In this document: piece by piece, positions 11,465 through 18,789 of the stretch
How the letters are laid out: the number at the start of each line of letters is the position of its first letter
Numbering within the stretch: the stretch's first letter is position 1
Origin: Prevotellaceae bacterium
GTDB taxonomy: Bacteria > Bacteroidota > Bacteroidia > Bacteroidales > Bacteroidaceae
Length of the DNA stretch: 46,573 nucleotides
Reading direction: 5' to 3'
Assembly: GCA_022508585.1 (NCBI GenBank)
Contig: JAFLUU010000001.1
Span: forward strand, 1-46,573
The notes under the pieces: model-generated
Told to the model about the DNA's origin: nothing
Database searches by the model: none
Seen by the model: only the letters and a program-made list of their open reading frames with translations
Position numbers and translations under genes: made by a program

Positions 11465-12787
11465 CTATTTAGTCATCTCCTGCTCGATAGCACGAATTTC
11501 CTCTTTGTAATTCGGCGCCGTCTTAATCTTTATATCCACCTGCCGACAGGCGTGTAGCACCGTGGTGTGGTCGCGTCGACCGATGTGCAGCCCTATTTGC
11601 GTGCTGCTCATGTTCGTATGCTTCTGCATCAGATACATGGCAATCTGCCTGGCCTTCACAATGTTAGCCTTGCGCGAGGCAGAGTCCATATCCTTGTGCG
11701 TAATCTTGTAGAACTTGCACGTAGTGCTTACCACCAGTTCCGGAGTAATCACTTTAGCCTTAAAACGCACCAAGCGAGAGACTATACGCTCCGTCATTTC
11801 GAGCGTAATCTCGCTGTCGTTGAGTATAGACTGCACAAGGAGCGAGTTGATCACACCCTCCAGATCGCGCACGTTATCCGTTACATTCGTCGCAATATAG
11901 TCCACCACGTTTTTGGGGATATTCAGCTGATTTTTACGTATCTTAGCTTTCAGAATATTGCGGCGCAACTGTTCATCGGGGCGCAAAATTTCAGCAGTAG
12001 CCCCCATAACGAAACGCGAACTTACCCGCTCCTCAAAACCCTCCAACTTTGAGGGTGCTTTATCGGACGTAAAGATGATTTGCCGCCCGTTGCGCTGCAG
12101 ATGGTTGAAGATGTTGAACAGCGCCTCCTGCGTCTTGGCCTTACCCGAAATCTCATGTATATCATCCACTATCAGACAGTCGATAGACTGGTAGAAATAC
12201 ATAAAGTCATTAAACTTATTCTTCGGTACAGAGTCCGTGTACTGAATAAGGAAGTCGTGCGCCGAGACATAAAGCACTCGCTTCGAAGGATCATTCTCCA
12301 ATATTTTCAGACCAACCGCGTTAACCAAATGAGACTTGCCGACACCGGAGCTTCCGTATAGGAAAAAAGGGTTAAACGCGGTCTGCATCGGCTTAGTCGC
12401 GATAGTCATAGCTATAGAGCGCGCCAATTTGTTAGCATCACCCTTAACGAAGTTATCAAAAGTGTAAGCATCGCTCAGATGCGAATTAAAAATCGGTCTG
12501 GTGGGCTTCACCTCGTTAGCCACAGGCATATTGACAGGCGCTTCCTCCTTGACCCGTATATCCACATCGATAACCCCGAACACTTTGTCGACTTCCGCCT
12601 GCAGCATTTGGCCAAAATGCTCGGCCAAGTACTCGTAGAAGAAATTATTAGGCACCTGTAGGAACACTTTGTCCTCCTCCACTCCGAGAAAGACGATATG
12701 CTCAAACCATGTAGCGAACGTGTCTTGAGAAATCCGGGGGCGGATAGCCTCAAGCACCTCAGTCCATTTGTCTTGGTTCGCAATCAT
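11465..12787 (-). CDS. dnaA: Chromosomal replication initiator protein DnaA
   Basis: The AAA+ Walker A (GSSGVGKSHL), Walker B (LIVDDIH) and C-terminal DNA-binding domain (ARQIAMYL, IGRRDHTTVLHA) are all present. Confidence 0.95.
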   Translation of the reverse strand: MIANQDKWTEVLEAIRPRISQDTFATWFEHIVFLGVEEDKVFLQVPNNFFYEYLAEHFGQMLQAEVDKVFGVIDVDIRVKEEAPVNMPVANEVKPTRPIFNSHLSDAYTFDNFVKGDANKLARSIAMTIATKPMQTAFNPFFLYGSSGVGKSHLVNAVGLKILENDPSKRVLYVSAHDFLIQYTDSVPKNKFNDFMYFYQSIDCLIVDDIHEISGKAKTQEALFNIFNHLQRNGRQIIFTSDKAPSKLEGFEERVSSRFVMGATAEILRPDEQLRRNILKAKIRKNQLNIPKNVVDYIATNVTDNVRDLEGVINSLLVQSILNDSEITLEMTERIVSRLVRFKAKVITPELVVSTTCKFYKITHKDMDSASRKANIVKARQIAMYLMQKHTNMSSTQIGLHIGRRDHTTVLHACRQVDIKIKTAPNYKEEIRAIEQEMTK

Positions 12788-12945: not shown

Positions 12946-15900
12946 CTAAGACATTGGCTTTATCATTGATTCAATAAAGTTTATTTCTTCTTCAGTTAAA
13001 TTGTATTTCCGATATAGTTGCTTATCTATTTCTGCCACACTCTTGCTCCAATCTATATCCGACTTTGCCGTAAAGTCTTGAATTGGAACAAAAGCAAAAC
13101 TATCTCTTGAGATTTGTTGTGTAATGACTTTTAATGATAGTAGATAACGTAAGAATTTTGTACATAAATATTTTGCAGCATTATCTACAATAATTTTATC
13201 CGCGGAATGGTAGACGAGAAGATAAGTCTCCGAGCAAATAACATTGGGTTCTAAAACTTTAACCTTAGGAAGAACCTTTCGTTTTCCGTCTTTATCTGCA
13301 CGACCAGCCGATTCACTTGCTCTTGAACAAATAACTTTCCATTCATCCACGACATTACTATTTACAACAACATCTGCGCGGTCAACATACGACACGCCTT
13401 GACGTCCATACAAGGCAACAGACGACGAATTACTATTCTCGTAGCCAACATAATTTGTCGGGAATCCAAAAGGTTTCCTACTAAATACAATAGAAGATAA
13501 TGTCTCTTCTTCTTTACTCGACACTTTTTGCAGTAAATCTATAGCAGCAGTACTTCTTACAAATACAGAATGTTCGTTTAGTTTTCTATAAGACACCTTT
13601 CGCTCTCCTGCTGTTATATTTTCAAAGCGGCACTCTCCGTGATAATCATGTTCGTGAAGAAAGTAGCATATTCCTCCTGCTATATTGACTGTCGGAAAAA
13701 TATCTCTGGAGTCAGTATAGTCAAACAAAGTTTTTATGCGGTCATCATTCAGCATGTCCTCTCTAAAAGCATCGAGCCCCTTACCTCCAGCGTACCACCT
13801 TGCTGGCATAATCATCGACATATAGTTAGGTATAAGCCTCTTTGCCATATCAACAAACAAGTTATAAACAGGAATTGCGCTCGCTTGTGCTCCTCCGTCC
13901 ATTTCTTGATACGGCGGATTACCTACTATCGCTTTTATTCTCATATCTTTTCCTACAAGATTGCTAACTTTCTTTATAAAAAGTTCCGGCTGGTTTTTAA
14001 TTTTGTTGATTAAGTCATCGGGAGCCCACATATTGGTCTTGCCTTTGCGGAAGCCAAACAGTGTGCGGCGCGTGATAGTTTTTGCCATAGGCGTTTTGCA
14101 TATCACAAAAATGTTATCTGCTATTACTGCGTCCCAAATAGCCTGATGCTCAGCGAGAGTGCGAGGCGAGGAAACATTATCGCGCAGACGCGAACGATAG
14201 ACATTATATGCCAAATACAGCGGATAAAGTCCTGATTTGCTGTTAATCTCAAGCAAACACGCGTCGGGACGGAACACATCGGCGGTAACATTGTCGCGCT
14301 CCACGAAGCGCGGCTCTTCTATAGTGTCGGAGAAGTCCTCATTGAAGAAAGTGTAGCCTCCAAGGCAGTCGCTCATATGCATATTGACCACGCGCCACGG
14401 TGTAAGCACCGTTTCCTTATCAGGATTGCGGAAAGTGCTGAAAATATCAGCGATGCGCCCGATGCGTTCCTCCACCGTTAGGTTGTCTGCCGCGCGAGCC
14501 ATTTGTCTGATGCGCTTAGCCGCAGCAGTAAAAATGTCGGGATCGTAATATTTCTTGAAATCATTGAAATGTTCCTTGCTCACACCGCGCGGCATAAACT
14601 CTTCCCATGATGTGTCGTCGACAAGCGCGGTGAAATTATCTATCGTCAGCTCCCTGTCCTCGTCCACGATGTTTGCACCATATATAAGCAGGGGCATACG
14701 GATGCTGATGCCGCGCAGTATGGAGATAGCATCGTCTCTTAGCTTGCGCCGCTTTGCCAATTCCTCGCGGCGAGCACGCTCTTCGTCGCTAAGCTCGCTT
14801 TTCTTTTTCTTGTTAAGCCTCTCCATCTCGGCATACTCCTCATTAGTCAGCCCCTGCTCGTTGACAGCAATCTTATTCGACTTAGCAATCGCTTTGGTCT
14901 TGCCGATAATGCCCTTGAGGTTGTTAAACTCCTTGAGTTCAAGTGCAGAGAGCTTCATCAGCTCGTCGTTATATAGGTAGCCGTCCTCAAAACCATTGCG
15001 CACCACTCTCTCCACATACACGCGCTTAAGCTGTTGGAGCATCTGCTCCGTGTCATACTGCTTCATTCGGCTGCCCTCAATGCCGATGACGGGGCAGAAG
15101 TTGAGAAACTCTCTCAGTAGCCTGCGGTCATCGTCCGTCTGCTTGCCGGCCTTGCGCGACACCTTGGCCGTCTCGGCTAATACGCGCAGCGTGCGGTCGG
15201 GGGCGAAGTCAAAGACATAGCAATCCTCCTTGACGCGCCCACAGATGGTGGCAGGCGTCTGCACACGGAAGATGGTCTGCATATAACTCGCGGCAGCAGT
15301 GTTGTAATTGCCCGACAGCATCAGCACGCCCGTCCATGCCGGCACACTGACACCCGTAGTCAGCCTGCCGCACGACAGCGTGATGGTCTCGGTGGCCGAC
15401 GGGTCAGCAGTGATTGCCTGTTGCACTTTTTCGAGAGCGTTATTATAACGCCGGGTATCGTCGTCTTCTTTTACCCCCATGTCGCCGGCCACATTCACTA
15501 TCTTCACGCCGCGTGCTCCGAAGCAGTCGTGGTCTAAGAGCATCTGCTCGAGGGCGGCAGCCTCCTTCACGCCCGGCACTATCCACAGCGTGTGGCGAAA
15601 GATATTGCGGTAGCGCTCGTTGGCAAAGGGATACATGCTGTGCTCATCGGTCTTGGTCAGCAAGTTAAGGAAGCTCTGAATATATCGCTTATGCACAAAC
15701 TCGCCGCTATCGTCGACACGAAAGAACTCCTTGAAGTTGAAAGCCAGTTCTTCATCGGCAAACTCGTTAAGCAGACGCCCGAGGTCATAGGTATAGATGT
15801 GCATCGTGGGCAGCGCGGCGTAGGGGTTGTGGTCGCCCGGGTGGTCGATGTCCCATTGCGCCTTGGCGCGCTGCTCCATCACATAGTCCCATGTGTAAAT

Positions 15901-16914
15901 CTCGTCCTCGCTGTAGTCATTGAGCAGATTAAAGGGCGTACCCGAGAGGTTGAGCACCTTGGTAGTCTCCTTCACAAGCTCATTCAGCACACTCTTTCCT
16001 AATTCGGTCTGAGTGCCTTCGTGAGCCTCGTCCACGATTATCAAATCCCACTCCGCCGAGAACAGTTCATCGTTCTTGTCGAAGTGGCCGCCCACCAACT
16101 CCGAGCCGCGCAAGTCCTGCATCGACGCAAAGTAGACATAGCCGCCCTCTCCCTTCCTCGAGCGGCTCTCAAGCGACTGAAAGCTCTCGCTTTTACTCTT
16201 AGAGCCGTACATAAATGTGGCATCGTCATAAAAAATCTTGCCGAAATCTTCAAACCACCCCTCGTCCACCACCGGACGGTGCGTCAGTATGAGCACACGC
16301 TGCATAGGCTGATGCTTCTTGCCGTCAGCCACAGTCTGATTCCACTCCTTCACCACCTGCAAGGCCGACAGCGTCTTGCCGAAGCGCATCTTGGCGTTCC
16401 AGAGCATCTTGTTGCTGCGCCGAAAGTGCTTGAGCGTGCTGCCGATAGCCTCTCTTTGCTCCGCACGAAACACTATAGGCGACCTACGCGTGCCGACCTG
16501 CCCTGCATTGAGCGCAGCCCTGCCTGCCTTGGCGGCAGCAATTGCCTGTTTGGCTGTCTCAAGGTCGCACACATACCACTCGTTGGCACCGTCCACATGG
16601 GGAAACTTCTTTTTCTTCACACCCGAGCGGTCAAGCACCTCATGCACTTTATGATCATTGATGCCGCAGAGCCTGCCGCCCTTAGAGAATATCGCCACCT
16701 CGGTGTGCAGCAGCTCATAGGCGATGCCGGCTGTCTTAGTGTACTGGTCGATGCGCCGGCGCGCCGTCCTGTTGAGTACAACGCTGTTAGGCGGCAGATT
16801 GATGTCGCCGTCCTCGAAAGTAGCCTCGCCAATCTTTACACAATCACGGTGCGCCGCGTCATTGATGCGGAACACATAAATCAATTTGGCCTTAAGGTCA
16901 GAAAAATACTCCAT
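12946..16914 (-). CDS. 1322-aa fusion protein with a T5orf172/GIY-YIG-like nuclease domain, an SF2 (ResIII/SNF2-like) helicase, a charged coiled-coil coupler, a gamma-class N6-adenine DNA methyltransferase (Eco57I/TaqI-like) and a target-recognition domain. It is a Type ISP-like restriction-modification or defence enzyme.
   Basis: aa 8-125: LIYVF..VKIGEAT..RRRI..HEVL..NEWY (T5orf172/GIY-YIG pattern). Helicase motif I is AKMRFGKT (16372-16395), motif II is IIVDEAH (around 16021-16035), motif III is LSGTP, and motif VI is QTIFRVQT. aa 690-730 form a Lys/Arg/Glu-rich coiled coil. MTase motif X is ETVLTPWRVVN (around 14383-14403), motif I-like is LLEINSKSGLYP (14221-14256), and motif IV is NPPY (13909-13920). 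The C-terminal TRD ends LYRKYNLTEEEINFIESMIKPM. Confidence 0.8.
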   Translation of the reverse strand: MEYFSDLKAKLIYVFRINDAAHRDCVKIGEATFEDGDINLPPNSVVLNRTARRRIDQYTKTAGIAYELLHTEVAIFSKGGRLCGINDHKVHEVLDRSGVKKKKFPHVDGANEWYVCDLETAKQAIAAAKAGRAALNAGQVGTRRSPIVFRAEQREAIGSTLKHFRRSNKMLWNAKMRFGKTLSALQVVKEWNQTVADGKKHQPMQRVLILTHRPVVDEGWFEDFGKIFYDDATFMYGSKSKSESFQSLESRSRKGEGGYVYFASMQDLRGSELVGGHFDKNDELFSAEWDLIIVDEAHEGTQTELGKSVLNELVKETTKVLNLSGTPFNLLNDYSEDEIYTWDYVMEQRAKAQWDIDHPGDHNPYAALPTMHIYTYDLGRLLNEFADEELAFNFKEFFRVDDSGEFVHKRYIQSFLNLLTKTDEHSMYPFANERYRNIFRHTLWIVPGVKEAAALEQMLLDHDCFGARGVKIVNVAGDMGVKEDDDTRRYNNALEKVQQAITADPSATETITLSCGRLTTGVSVPAWTGVLMLSGNYNTAAASYMQTIFRVQTPATICGRVKEDCYVFDFAPDRTLRVLAETAKVSRKAGKQTDDDRRLLREFLNFCPVIGIEGSRMKQYDTEQMLQQLKRVYVERVVRNGFEDGYLYNDELMKLSALELKEFNNLKGIIGKTKAIAKSNKIAVNEQGLTNEEYAEMERLNKKKKSELSDEERARREELAKRRKLRDDAISILRGISIRMPLLIYGANIVDEDRELTIDNFTALVDDTSWEEFMPRGVSKEHFNDFKKYYDPDIFTAAAKRIRQMARAADNLTVEERIGRIADIFSTFRNPDKETVLTPWRVVNMHMSDCLGGYTFFNEDFSDTIEEPRFVERDNVTADVFRPDACLLEINSKSGLYPLYLAYNVYRSRLRDNVSSPRTLAEHQAIWDAVIADNIFVICKTPMAKTITRRTLFGFRKGKTNMWAPDDLINKIKNQPELFIKKVSNLVGKDMRIKAIVGNPPYQEMDGGAQASAIPVYNLFVDMAKRLIPNYMSMIMPARWYAGGKGLDAFREDMLNDDRIKTLFDYTDSRDIFPTVNIAGGICYFLHEHDYHGECRFENITAGERKVSYRKLNEHSVFVRSTAAIDLLQKVSSKEEETLSSIVFSRKPFGFPTNYVGYENSNSSSVALYGRQGVSYVDRADVVVNSNVVDEWKVICSRASESAGRADKDGKRKVLPKVKVLEPNVICSETYLLVYHSADKIIVDNAAKYLCTKFLRYLLSLKVITQQISRDSFAFVPIQDFTAKSDIDWSKSVAEIDKQLYRKYNLTEEEINFIESMIKPMS

Positions 16915-16918
16915 ATCG

Positions 16919-17935
16919 CTATCCTTTAATCAAGTCCACAAATCTTATTTTCTGCTTCTCCCCTTTTGCGCTCCAGTCCTTCACGAGCGCATAAGTGCCA
17001 TTGTGGGCGCGCAGCTCGTCAGTCCTGCACCCTTGGCAGTGCTCGATGCGCTCCACCGTCCCGAATAATTCCTCCTCCACCTCCCTGCGTTCGCCGCAAG
17101 AGTCGGGGACGACACATTTCAAACCGTCCATCTGCCAGATGTTCCAAGAGATGATGTAAGCAATGTATTTTACGGACTTCAGCAGCGGCTCCCTTTCAAA
17201 CTTAGCCTTATAATAGTCCGTAAAAGTATGTAACAAGTTCATACGCGCCAGCAGCAGGTTGTCGCCCTGCCAGTCATAGCCGTAGATGCTCTGATAAGCC
17301 GACTGCGCCGCCTTAAGCCATTCGGCGGAAGTCTCGCAGTTTTCGCTAACCACCCTCAGCTTGCGGTCAAGCAAGCCGATGCGTTCCTCTATGGGGATAA
17401 ACCTGCCGGTAGTAGCGTCATAGCGGCTCACAAGGTAGGGAGCTTCGCCGCAAGTAATCTCAAGGCGGTTTTCATTGACATAGCTGCGCCAAGTTTTACC
17501 CTCGGGAAAGTTCACTGGCTCCTTGTTTACTGTCCAAGAGTGGCTGCCGTCGGGAGCATCTACCTCGACATTAAACACACCCTCGCGGCCGAACCACGCA
17601 GAGTCCACCAAGTTGTTCTGCGCATTGCAAATCCACGACGGAGTGAACACCTCCGCCATCTCCTTAGCCCTCGCCTGCTGACTCAAGCGCGACTTGAGCA
17701 CGCGGGGGAGCACCACATCGCTCCGACTGCCGCTCACAAGATGCGACATAATCTCGTCGGCGTAGCCATAGCCTTCGCCAAGCTCCTCATAGTCGTGAGT
17801 AGCCCAAAAGATGTTGCGGCCGGTAGTATGATCGCGGAGCAATATGTCTAATAGCTCCGGCGCATAGTCAGCCAAATCGTTCTCCCTGATGTCTACACCA
17901 AGGTTGTTGCCACTTATAGCATTTGCTTTTGGCAT
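16919..17935 (-). CDS. 338-aa partner protein. It resembles the N-terminal half of a gamma-class N6-adenine methyltransferase (motif X, I and II/III-like), lacks an NPPY-type motif, and has a C-terminal 4-Cys putative zinc-binding cluster.
   Basis: The MTase-like motifs are AEVFTPSWICN (motif X-like), LEITCGEAPYL (compare M.TaqI EPACAHGPFL) and IYGYDWQGDNLLLARMNLL (HsdM/Eco57I motif II-III-like). I found no (N/D)PP(Y/F/W). The Cys cluster is C274-x5-C280...C300-x2-C303. The stop lies 4 nt before the start of the 1322-aa ORF. Confidence 0.65.
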   Translation of the reverse strand: MPKANAISGNNLGVDIRENDLADYAPELLDILLRDHTTGRNIFWATHDYEELGEGYGYADEIMSHLVSGSRSDVVLPRVLKSRLSQQARAKEMAEVFTPSWICNAQNNLVDSAWFGREGVFNVEVDAPDGSHSWTVNKEPVNFPEGKTWRSYVNENRLEITCGEAPYLVSRYDATTGRFIPIEERIGLLDRKLRVVSENCETSAEWLKAAQSAYQSIYGYDWQGDNLLLARMNLLHTFTDYYKAKFEREPLLKSVKYIAYIISWNIWQMDGLKCVVPDSCGERREVEEELFGTVERIEHCQGCRTDELRAHNGTYALVKDWSAKGEKQKIRFVDLIKG

Positions 17936-18218
17936 AATCTATATTTTGGCAAAAGCACTTATCGGGAGTACAGACTCTTAACACAACTTTATAGATACGA
18001 AAAAGCGCGGACGCTTATCCGTACCTGAGGTTGTGAGAAAAGACCTGCCATAAATGATAAGTAATAATCCACGCTATAATGCGCAGACACTATACACTTA
18101 TTCAAATTTAGGCTCTTATGAAACTTCTCACATTTCAGGTACGCCGAATAACTGCTAATGCTGTTAGTATTCCAGTAAAGGGCTGTAGTCTCATCGCGAT
18201 GAGCGTAACAACTCACAG

Positions 18219-18226
18219 CAAAAGTA
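18219..18226 (-). promoter_or_regulatory. Candidate -7 box (TACTTTTG on the minus strand) upstream of the two-gene RM-like operon
   Basis: This is the only TAnnTTTG match I found between 17936 and 18360. It would give a leader of about 280 nt, so the assignment is tentative. Confidence 0.3.
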
Positions 18227-18354
18227 GTAACTTTTTGGGATAAAGCATCTATTTAACTCTAAAAATCGCCACTAAACCACCTCGCCACCACAACAAATTA
18301 GAATATTTTTTGCCCTATGCGTGCGTACATTATTATAAATACTCTATATATTGT

Positions 18355-18652
18355 TTGAAATACCGTGCGAACTCATAGAAATGTCGTGCGCGCCCGATTT
18401 TAGCGCCTCCGCGCGCGTAGAAATGTCGGGAAAGTTCAAAAATTCCTATAAGAATTTCTAAAAAATCTTATAAGAATTCTCGGAAATTTATATAAGAATT
18501 TTTGAAAATTCTTATATGATTTTTTCAAAATCAACGAGCAAAAAACAAATGCGCAGGCTCAAAAATCAGACGCCGAGGCCTTTTCTATGAAGTTTGAGGG
18601 GGTTAAGTGCAGCAAGGACGAGGTTTTATGTAATTTTGAGGGGATAAGGTAC
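18355..18652. repeat. Full copy B of the composite palindromic intergenic repeat (arm, four-palindrome core at 18441-18522, arm)
   Basis: The core is about 93% identical by eye to the cores at 26253-26334 and 35463-35544. The left arm is the reverse complement of the type-1 arm (gtagaaatgtcgggaa, 18417-18432). The right arm is type-2 (aacgagcaaaaaacaaatgcgcagg..ggttaagtgc). Confidence 0.85.
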
Positions 18653-18674
18653 GGCTTTGGCGATATTGTAAAAC

Positions 18675-18710
18675 AAAAAGAGAGGAAAACTAAGTTTTTC
18701 CTCTCTTTTT
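18675..18710 (-). terminator. Hairpin immediately downstream of tRNA-Asp
   Basis: aaagagaggaaaac and gtttttcctctcttt form a ~14-bp stem flanked by A/T runs, 2 nt from the tRNA 3' end. Confidence 0.6.
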
Positions 18711-18712
18711 GT

Positions 18713-18789
18713 TGGCGGTGCGTACGGGACTCGAACCCGTGACCCCCTGCGTGACAGGCAGATATTCTAACCAACTGAACTAACGCACC
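18713..18789 (-). tRNA. tRNA-Asp (anticodon GTC), CCA encoded
   Basis: The reverse complement is GGTGCGTTAGTTCAGTTGGTTAGAATATCTGCCTGTCACGCAGGGGGTCACGGGTTCGAGTCCCGTACGCACCGCCA. It folds by hand into a cloverleaf with a 7-bp acceptor stem, anticodon loop CTGTCAC and T-loop TTCGAGT. Confidence 0.93.

Follow-up and report, generated by a model that had tools for sequence, protein, structure and literature searches.

A widespread gene pair of Bacteroidota as a candidate two-subunit restriction-modification enzyme with a T5orf172-type domain and a methylase probably assembled across two polypeptides

INTRODUCTION

Type ISP restriction-modification enzymes such as LlaGI and LlaBIII (PDB 4xqk) are single chains in which a nuclease, a helicase, a coupler, a gamma-class methylase and a recognition domain follow one another. 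Driven by ATP, they translocate along DNA, cleave it upon head-on collision, and hemimethylate an asymmetric site. Their nuclease is of the Mrr/PD-(D/E)xK type (PMC2790908). Here we analyse two adjacent genes in a 46,573-nucleotide stretch of DNA from a Prevotellaceae bacterium (GenBank assembly GCA_022508585.1, contig JAFLUU010000001.1, positions 1 to 46,573), which is referred to as the window. The product of the larger gene shows the Type ISP order on a single chain, but the domain at the nuclease position is of the T5orf172/GIY-YIG type. The pair also differs from Type ISP in that a second subunit is conserved (adjacent in 77 of 80 loci, and fused in the homologue P0294) and in that the N-terminal half of the methylase is duplicated, with one copy on the separate, smaller protein. 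Neither of two features that define Type ISP, the Mrr nuclease and a single self-sufficient polypeptide, is seen here. Judged from sequence comparison, we propose that the pair is an obligate two-subunit, ATP-dependent restriction-modification enzyme of a Type ISP/Type III-like kind, a reading to which we give a probability of roughly 0.6, and that its methylase is probably assembled across the two polypeptides.

In domain content, the nearest known system is the DnmA(YeeA)-YeeB-YeeC cluster of B. subtilis and Vibrio crassostreae. Like the window, it combines a gamma-class methylase of the MmeI/Eco57I kind, a superfamily 2 (SF2) helicase and a T5orf172/GIY-YIG protein, and in Vibrio the cluster is needed for resistance to some phages (PMC9973331). 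Unlike the window pair, it consists of three proteins, with no half-methylase subunit reported; the two were compared by domain content only.

In Type III systems (Mod and Res, e.g. EcoP15I), the gene for methylation and recognition comes first and that for the helicase-nuclease second. This order is also found in one layout of the family studied here (Arch2, see below), and in both the helicase-nuclease subunit depends on the methylase subunit for recognition. The helicase of the large protein even falls under the Pfam name 'Type III restriction enzyme, res subunit'. In the Type III systems themselves, Mod belongs to the beta class of methylases and works as a dimer, and the PD-(D/E)xK nuclease of Res lies at its C-terminus. 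The window, on the other hand, has a gamma-class methylase, an N-terminal T5orf172 domain and a methylase N-half on the helicase protein. Type IIG enzymes (Eco57I, MmeI, BpuSI) share with the window an Eco57I-family methylase and a recognition domain, and Eco57I, like the large protein, is accompanied by a second methylase-like gene. Type IIG enzymes combine nuclease and methylase in one chain and cut at a fixed distance with no ATP-dependent motor. The window differs from them by a 550-aa SF2 helicase with complete motifs between nuclease and methylase, by a nuclease that is not of the PD-(D/E)xK type, and by a partner that amounts to no more than one methylase half.

MANTIS (Gao_RL) and BREX are methylation-based systems in which a partner-dependent methylase is combined with a separate helicase-nuclease that restricts, and MANTIS sets an example of hemimethylation that needs partner proteins and is linked to a helicase-nuclease (bioRxiv 10.64898/2026.09.23.753747). 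Neither protein of the window pair contains an AAA+ ATPase, DUF3870 or a PLD nuclease. PglX/BrxX of BREX is a structural match to the methylase-recognition part of the large protein. MANTIS/Gao_RL, whose proteins are unrelated, was rejected as the family of the pair, and no PADLOC model of Gao_RL or BREX matches. A nuclease from the same family as the N-terminal domain is Odn (gp88) of phage ICP1, in which the Arg and Glu are likewise conserved. DNA is cut by Odn but not by its E180A mutant (PMC8263062). It is a stand-alone, origin-directed phage nuclease, whereas the domain in the window is the N-terminal module of a motor-methylase protein.

RESULTS

The gene pair and its conservation

The locus consists of two open reading frames (ORFs) on the minus strand. 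The small gene (16919..17935, minus strand; 338 aa) encodes a putatively S-adenosylmethionine (SAM)-binding N-terminal half of an Eco57I-family methylase together with a Cys/His knuckle, and the large gene (12946..16914, minus strand) encodes a protein of 1322 aa. The spacer between them, cgat (16915..16918, minus strand), reaches from the stop codon of the small gene to the ATG of the large gene (...GGA TAG cgat ATG GAG...) and is exactly 4 nt long, which suggests co-translation as one operon. In related loci, gaps of about 9–35 nt recur between the genes, as determined from tblastn coordinates. A previous inspection of the window without database searches (the sequence-only reading) had reported the two ORFs and their 4-nt gap, both of which are present, and had quoted a series of motifs in the large protein. 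All of them were found in the translation and in the expected order: LIYVF (11–15), VKIGEAT (26–32) and NEWY (111–114) in the nuclease-like domain, RFGKT (177–181), DEAH (295–298), SGTP (324–327) and QTIFRVQT (546–553) in the helicase, and TPWRVVN (838–844), LLEINSKSGLYP (887–898) and NPPY (999–1002) in the methylase.

Searches with each of the two proteins returned at least 8000 clusters at 90% identity. To the question whether the genes are co-conserved, raised by the sequence-only reading, the loci give a clear answer: in 77 of 80 the genes are adjacent and on the same strand, with the large gene downstream of the small one. In the three loci in which no large gene was detected, the sequence ends within 1 kb downstream, and one of these (L022) does begin a large gene of subfamily 2. 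With this number of clusters and this constancy of arrangement, the feature lies far beyond chance. In a scan of one genome per species, at least 591 species genomes were carriers. Most of them belong to Bacteroidota; carriers outside this phylum include Cloacimonadales, Ignavibacteria and a Pseudoflavonifractor metagenome-assembled genome. Among the carriers are the cultured Alistipes putredinis DSM 17216, Rikenella microfusus DSM 15922, Parabacteroides massiliensis SN4 and Palleniella muris.

Pfam assigns ResIII (148–328; 6e-14) and an Eco57I methylase (934–1073; 8e-27) to the large protein. In the PADLOC check that the sequence-only reading had called for, the large protein is listed under 'Type IIG' and each methylase half under 'Type II MTase'. 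Specifically, residues 991–1321 of the large protein match 'MTase_II' PDLC03375 (3e-75) as well as the C-terminus of the 1359-position 'REase_MTase_IIG' profile, which is only a database name for the large protein, and the whole small protein matches 'MTase_II' PDLC03390 (3e-122). For both proteins, only restriction-modification models of PADLOC gave matches, and no model of another defence system did. These restriction-modification model sets are, as we assume, derived from REBASE. No significant sequence relatives were found in the PDB by phmmer with both proteins, by the small-family profile or with the Arch3 methylase.

The small protein is related to the N-terminal half of a gamma-class methylase

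In the AlphaFold2 (AF2) model of the small protein, which has a predicted local distance difference test (pLDDT) score of 76.9 and a predicted template modelling score (pTM) of 0.76, the core of the subunit (17120..17668, minus strand; aa 90–272) reaches a pLDDT of 85–97. Four methylase-like motifs were located in or at this core, namely the X-like EVFTP (95–99), the I-like EITCGEAPY (159–167), the II-like YGYDWQGD (218–225) and the III-like WNIWQMDG (264–271). The core motif residues are 94–100% conserved in 188 diverse members, in split and fused forms alike. These residues are EVFTP, E159-x-x-C-G-E-A-P-Y, the acidic position 221 and Q-M-D270, and all three acidic positions are retained. The core is followed by a Cys/His knuckle (C280, C300, C303, H311; 16997..17098, minus strand; aa 280–313) that probably binds zinc. 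Its residues are conserved to 67% (C280), 86% (C300), 88% (C303) and 90% (H311), and AF2 places a beta-hairpin at 283–298 within it. The knuckle is missing from the homologue on an Enterococcus plasmid. No Pfam match was obtained for the small protein, and neither an NPPY motif nor a recognition domain is present in it.

The nature of the small protein becomes apparent from its relatives. An exhaustive profile search showed that the family comprises 2042 clusters at 50% identity. In 37 of the 150 top representatives (P0252, P0257, P0262, P0267 and 33 others), the small domain is joined directly to a G[ND]PP[YFW] motif and a recognition domain. These fused forms carry the tail '...FIESMIKPM' as in the large protein, and no further N-half lies in between. 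In P0262 (219–453) and P0267 (243–406), the Pfam Eco57I alignment starts within the small domain. Judged by these fused relatives, the small protein corresponds to the part of a gamma-class methylase that bears motifs X, I, II and III, its N-terminal half.

Domain organization of the large protein

Pfam, PADLOC and the motif positions agree on the order of the large protein: T5orf172-type domain, SF2 helicase, charged linker, gamma-class N6-adenine methylase and recognition domain. For each region, mean identities over 119 homologues are given. The N-terminal domain (16495..16914, minus strand; aa 1–140; 71% identity, GC 0.55) is assigned to T5orf172 of the GIY-YIG superfamily and is presumed to be a nuclease. 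The window domain itself scores 14 bits against Pfam T5orf172 (PF10544, GIY-YIG clan), under the cut-off of 20. Homologous N-domains score above the cut-off, with 24.8 bits in the orthologue L043 and 26.9 bits in subfamily 2, and the separate helicase protein of Arch3 reaches 41.3 bits for T5orf172 and 44.4 bits for MUG113. In an alignment across subfamilies, Y13, K27-x-G29, R54 and H91 are invariant and E112 is aligned in four of five sequences; among 120 homologues, these positions are at least 90% conserved. Roles for these residues were transferred from Odn and I-TevI. In Odn, T5orf172 is a proven nuclease, and mutation of the matching Glu abolishes cutting (PMC8263062). No PD-(D/E)xK or Mrr domain was matched by Pfam in the large protein. 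The passing homologues, the conserved residues and the precedent of Odn support the earlier call of a 'GIY-YIG-like nuclease' by homology. Membership of the domain in the T5orf172 family is thus supported, and by analogy with Odn it may cleave DNA.

The SF2 helicase/translocase (14845..16494, minus strand; aa 141–690; 73% identity, GC 0.55) matches the DNA helicase PHROG 16 (1.7e-23), and its ATPase motifs (Walker A, DEAH, III and VI) are complete. Next comes a charged helical, coupler-like segment (14425..14844, minus strand; aa 691–830; 76% identity, GC 0.51) that contains ILRGISIRMPLLIYG at 732–746 and forms long helices in the AF2 model. An equivalent segment is retained in the helicase proteins of Arch2 and Arch3. 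The AF2 model covers aa 141–1322 and has a pLDDT of 60.7 and a pTM of 0.38, so that it was used for fold matching at the level of domains only. The N-lobe of the helicase and the recognition domain are well modelled, and pLDDT is below 50 over most of 808–1013, which includes the second methylase N-half described below. When compared to the PDB by Foldseek, the top match was the Type ISP enzyme LlaBIII (4xqk_A; E 5e-10, 1487 alignment columns), which is also the sole PDB match running along the whole modelled chain, with the low confidence of the model applying to this match as well. The next matches were the adenine methylase CamA (target TM-score 0.49) and then PglX/BrxX of BREX, followed by many SF2 motors of the RIG-I, MDA5, Snf2 and Chd1 types. 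The predicted order of helicase, methylase and recognition domain is Type ISP-like.

The methylase part of the large protein begins with a second N-half (13945..14424, minus strand; aa 831–990; GC 0.47), here called N-half'. With a mean identity of 81%, it is the best-conserved segment of the large protein. It contains TPWRVVN, LLEINSKSGLYP with Lys893 at the position usually held by the first Gly, and FVICKTP, which lacks the motif-II acid. This acid is missing from N-half' in the window subfamily (FVICKTP) and in subfamily 2 (IYSICTS), the latter being 24–43% identical. The Lys that the sequence-only reading had noticed in SKSG is present. Its reservation that methylation competence was not assured because of this residue is revised here, as the Lys recurs across subfamilies and layouts (SKSG in subfamily 1, SKQG in subfamily 2, TKSG in Arch3, MKSG in Arch2), and does so in the best-conserved segment, which argues against decay. 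M.TaqI likewise lacks the first Gly of the SAM loop. Methylation competence probably depends on the small partner, the bearer of the more canonical SAM motifs. The catalytic half (13690..13944, minus strand; aa 991–1075; 64% identity, GC 0.42) carries GNPPYQ at 998–1003, and NPPY is invariant among the homologues. The PADLOC PDLC03375 alignment begins at residue 991, and the catalytic half is homologous to a stand-alone phage protein, gp277, which begins MKFDIIVGNPPYQ. The motif order X, I, IV is that of a gamma-class methylase.

The target-recognition domain (13105..13689, minus strand; aa 1076–1270; GC 0.37; AF2 pLDDT 80–90) is hypervariable, with 35% mean identity compared to 64–81% in the other regions of the large protein. 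This identity pattern is the usual specificity-swapping signature of restriction-modification enzymes. Foldseek matched the recognition part to CamA and PglX/BrxX. The protein ends in conserved C-terminal helices (12946..13104, minus strand, including the stop codon; aa 1271–1322; 75% identity, GC 0.33) with the sequence DIDWSKS...QLYRKYNLTEEEINFIESMIKPMS, a tail that is shared with type-A fused methylases and phage gp277. Along the large gene, GC declines steadily from 0.55 in the T5orf172 and helicase parts to 0.33 in the tail, the window average being 0.48; this suggests that the 3' catalytic and recognition part was recombined in from a donor of lower GC.

Phages carry the two methylase halves alone

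In the Tenacibaculum jumbo phages PTm1 and PTm5, genes for gp277, a helix-turn-helix (HTH) regulator and gp279 are adjacent. In PTm1 (NC_049340, 5570–8002), the C-half gp277, the HTH protein gp278 and the N-half gp279 are separate genes. The match of gp277 to PDLC03375 has an E-value of 3.5e-114; gp279 is 51.5% identical to the small protein of the window and matches PDLC03390 (6e-113). No match to the helicase, to T5orf172 or to N-half' was obtained in the PTm1 and PTm5 genomes. Likewise, an N-half and a C-half are adjacent in Fusobacterium phage FNU4, with no helicase match. The halves of this split methylase are therefore found both separate (gp279 and gp277 of PTm1) and fused (the 37 relatives described above). 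As phages carry the two-gene version consisting of methylase parts only, a small-type N-half and a C-half would make up the minimal working methylase. The PTm1 gene set is probably a naturally split orphan methylase that serves counter-defence.

Layouts of the family

Three layouts were distinguished. Arch1, found in the window, has the small gene followed by T5orf172-helicase-coupler-N-half'-NPPY-recognition domain. In Arch2, a protein of 650–720 aa joins the small-type N-half, the knuckle, NPPY and the recognition domain, and is followed by T5orf172-helicase-coupler-N-half' (about 1115–1140 aa). It was seen in L081, in L083/L084 and in 18 IMG/VR viral contigs, and in all of these (18 of 18 viral-contig loci, L081 and L083/L084) the helicase protein ends soon after N-half', without NPPY. 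Arch3 (L065) consists of the small gene, then N-half' with NPPY and recognition domain (512 aa), an inserted gene and T5orf172-helicase. In P0294, moreover, the small and large proteins are joined into one chain. Comparison of the layouts shows that each restriction-type locus has two different N-halves, one catalytic/recognition half and one T5orf172-helicase, and that either of the N-halves can bear the catalytic half.

The inserted gene of Arch3 (L065, 3170–3826), located between the methylase and T5orf172-helicase genes, encodes a 218-aa protein that resembles the 23S rRNA intervening-sequence protein, a four-helix bundle, with 29.9 bits at a Pfam cut-off of 33.8. On viral contig L093 (7001–9754), the small gene is followed by coupler-N-half'-NPPY-recognition domain, and in P0323 these parts are fused; the T5orf172-helicase part is missing from both, which look like methylase-only remnants. 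The E. faecium plasmid pK195-6b-A (L086, 6705–14186) carries a 282-aa small protein without the knuckle and then a 1412-aa large protein. An HTH regulator lies before this pair, and a DUF262 protein and a hypothetical gene lie after it, forming a small defence island on conjugative Enterococcus plasmids. Signs of decay or disruption were seen at four loci. A 153-aa ORF that by eye resembles an IS200-family transposase lies between the small and large genes of L043 (9181–9639), IS256 lies between the N-half and a 383-aa C-half on a Bifidobacterium longum plasmid (L088, 8125–9309), and the large gene is truncated or frameshifted in L032 and L048.

Genomic context

The neighbours of the pair in the window are dnaA (11465–12787; Pfam 1e-54) on one side and a tRNA-Asp gene (18713–18789) on the other. 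Four flanking genes were compared (dnaA, GH16, GNAT and GT2), and none of them reappears close to the pair in the other 80 loci; a vertically fixed position was rejected on this basis. The missing shared flanks, together with relatives on conjugative plasmids and IMG/VR contigs, point to horizontal movement of the module. An HTH regulator is found upstream in the Enterococcus plasmid and phage PTm1 copies; no ORF for a controller protein is present in the upstream stretch of the window (17936–18712). The small gene is separated from tRNA-Asp by an AT-rich spacer of 777 nt, which contains, at 18430–18531, four to five tandem units of 22 nt, each an imperfect palindrome (AAATTCTTATAAGAATTT). With dnaA located just beyond the pair, these repeats could be an operator of the operon, part of oriC or the boundary of an island. 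The tRNA-Asp gene (GTC, minus strand) is directly followed by a perfect 18-nt inverted repeat (18672–18713) that is terminator-like. The interval between tRNA-Asp and dnaA may be an insertion hot spot.

DISCUSSION

A model for the two-subunit enzyme

Taken together, the domain content of the pair, its co-conservation and its layouts are compatible with the following mechanism. The two proteins would be co-produced from a single operon and would associate in a complex, in which the recognition domain would read a short and probably asymmetric site. At host sites, the small subunit would give the SAM pocket to the NPPY half in trans, leading to methylation. On unmethylated foreign DNA, the SF2 motor would translocate at the expense of ATP and the T5orf172 domain would cut. 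The small-type N-half would complete the Rossmann fold of the NPPY half, acting in cis in the case of Arch2 and in trans for Arch1, Arch3 and the phage versions. The Lys-bearing N-half' may be a pseudo-half that docks the motor-nuclease onto the methylase and in this way couples recognition to restriction. The same quaternary structure for all three layouts is the most economical model. The mechanism can be carried one step further, if only tentatively: N-half' might compete with the small subunit at a two-chain active site, or dock beside it, and thereby switch the enzyme between methylation of a site (self) and release of the helicase-nuclease (non-self). If true, this would be a previously undescribed way to couple modification and restriction, and it would account for the location of the catalytic half on one gene or the other.

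Alternative explanations

Several observations weigh against the proposal that the pair is an obligate two-subunit restriction-modification enzyme. Foldseek of the small-protein model against the PDB gave no match below E 0.1. Sub-threshold matches were Rossmann-like fragments of about 65 residues with probabilities of 0.15–0.33, and as no PDB match was significant, the small protein was rejected as a complete methylase fold. In BFVD, the only significant matches were two short 'N-6 DNA Methylase' fragments (E 6e-12 and 2e-3), and full-length methylases match the small protein only weakly. Comparison of the small protein with the large-protein methylase gave no signal for close homologues (BLASTP, hhalign) and an hhalign probability of 2.3% (E 0.02) for the small protein and N-half' in diverse sets, in a weak alignment that is in register at motifs X and I. 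Since the direct comparison is weak, homology of the two N-halves derives from this motif register and from the way Pfam aligns the fused relatives. For the large protein the AF2 model is poor, so the LlaBIII match stands for local domain similarity plus collinearity. L093 and P0323 retain N-half' without a helicase and are a partial counter-example to the occurrence of N-half' only with the motor-nuclease. The Pfam Eco57I domain is complete in the large protein (934–1073, profile positions 2–171), which therefore might methylate unaided. Finally, DnmA-YeeB-YeeC, a system of similar domain content, gave no phage protection in B. subtilis (PMC9973331).

Some of these points lead to a different division of labour. 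In this alternative, the main rival of the model, the large protein works by itself as a Type ISP-like enzyme, and its N-half' and NPPY parts form the real methylase in Arch1 and Arch3. The small protein would then be a regulator, an accessory pseudo-methylase that might sense SAM, help in assembly or activation, or read the methylation state. It would be comparable to the accessory proteins of MANTIS, where accessory-dependent methylation is known. Besides the complete Eco57I profile over 934–1073 and the retention of N-half' without helicase in L093 and P0323, the alternative is favoured by the fact that N-half' is the most conserved segment and by the 512-aa protein of Arch3, which resembles a stand-alone methylase (Eco57I 2.4e-36, N6_Mtase 1e-4), with the small gene still present. 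However, in Arch2 the NPPY half is covalently attached to the small-type N-half, leaving N-half' without a catalytic half, and phages retain only the small-type N-half and the C-half. In N-half', Lys occupies the Gly loop throughout and the motif-II acid is missing in the window subfamily and subfamily 2, whereas the small protein keeps all three acidic positions. We consider a self-sufficient large protein possible but less likely than the two-subunit enzyme.

An alternative of another kind concerns cleavage. If T5orf172 only binds DNA, the locus might encode an epigenetic methylase with a translocase, or a BREX-like exclusion system that does not cut. The DnmA-YeeB-YeeC system of B. subtilis acts as an orphan methylase with no defence phenotype, and T5orf172 has been described as 'largely uncharacterized' and DNA-binding (PMC9973331); in addition, the N-domain of the window is under the Pfam threshold. 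Yet Tyr, Arg and His are conserved across subfamilies, Glu is aligned in four of five sequences, and in Odn the T5orf172 domain is a proven nuclease that is inactivated by mutation of the matching Glu (PMC8263062). Deletion of the DnmA and YeeB homologues in Vibrio raised sensitivity to some phages (PMC9973331), the helicase motifs of the large protein are intact, and phages carry the methylase halves alone, as would be expected for evading restriction. A locus that does not cut thus seems unlikely. It is even less probable, and in our view hardly to be expected, that the pair is a modification-sensing (Type IV-like) or abortive-infection system with a defective methylase, as the sequence-only reading had considered. 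The unusual Lys at the Gly-loop position of the large protein and its lack of a motif-II acid are the only observations in its favour. NPPY is invariant, a canonical SAM-binding half with 94–100% conservation is encoded next door, and no abortive-infection or Type IV model of PADLOC matches. The recognition domain diversifies like that of a sequence-specific restriction-modification enzyme, and its hypervariability, together with the methylase-only copies of phages, fits classical restriction-modification.

Relation to previous predictions and described families

With regard to the remaining predictions of the sequence-only reading, the Type ISP-like domain order was borne out by Pfam, PADLOC and the motifs, with LlaBIII as the top Foldseek match. 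The T5orf172/GIY-YIG-like N-domain was substantiated by the Pfam hits of homologues and the conserved Tyr, Arg, His and Glu positions, and the partner resembling half a methyltransferase by the fused relatives, the split phage genes and the PDLC03390 match. Its statement that no characterised member is known agrees with our literature searches, which did not cover REBASE and in which no paper describing or characterising the family or the architecture was found. The architecture is not absent from databases, as PADLOC models cover both proteins. As far as we found, the family is thus catalogued ('Type IIG', 'Type II MTase') but uncharacterised.

Implications

The family is very common in gut, rumen and environmental Bacteroidota and also occurs in other phyla, on conjugative plasmids and in phages, and annotation pipelines give it no name beyond 'Type IIG' or 'subunit M'. 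If the proposed activity is true, it would be the first motor-driven restriction-modification enzyme with a T5orf172/GIY-YIG-type nuclease. The fused, permuted and fully split forms provide a natural series for studying the assembly of a two-chain methylase and the coupling of methylation and restriction. If active, each variant should leave a specific N6-methyladenine (m6A) signature, and the family would probably be a major overlooked barrier to phage, conjugation and genetic manipulation in Bacteroidales.

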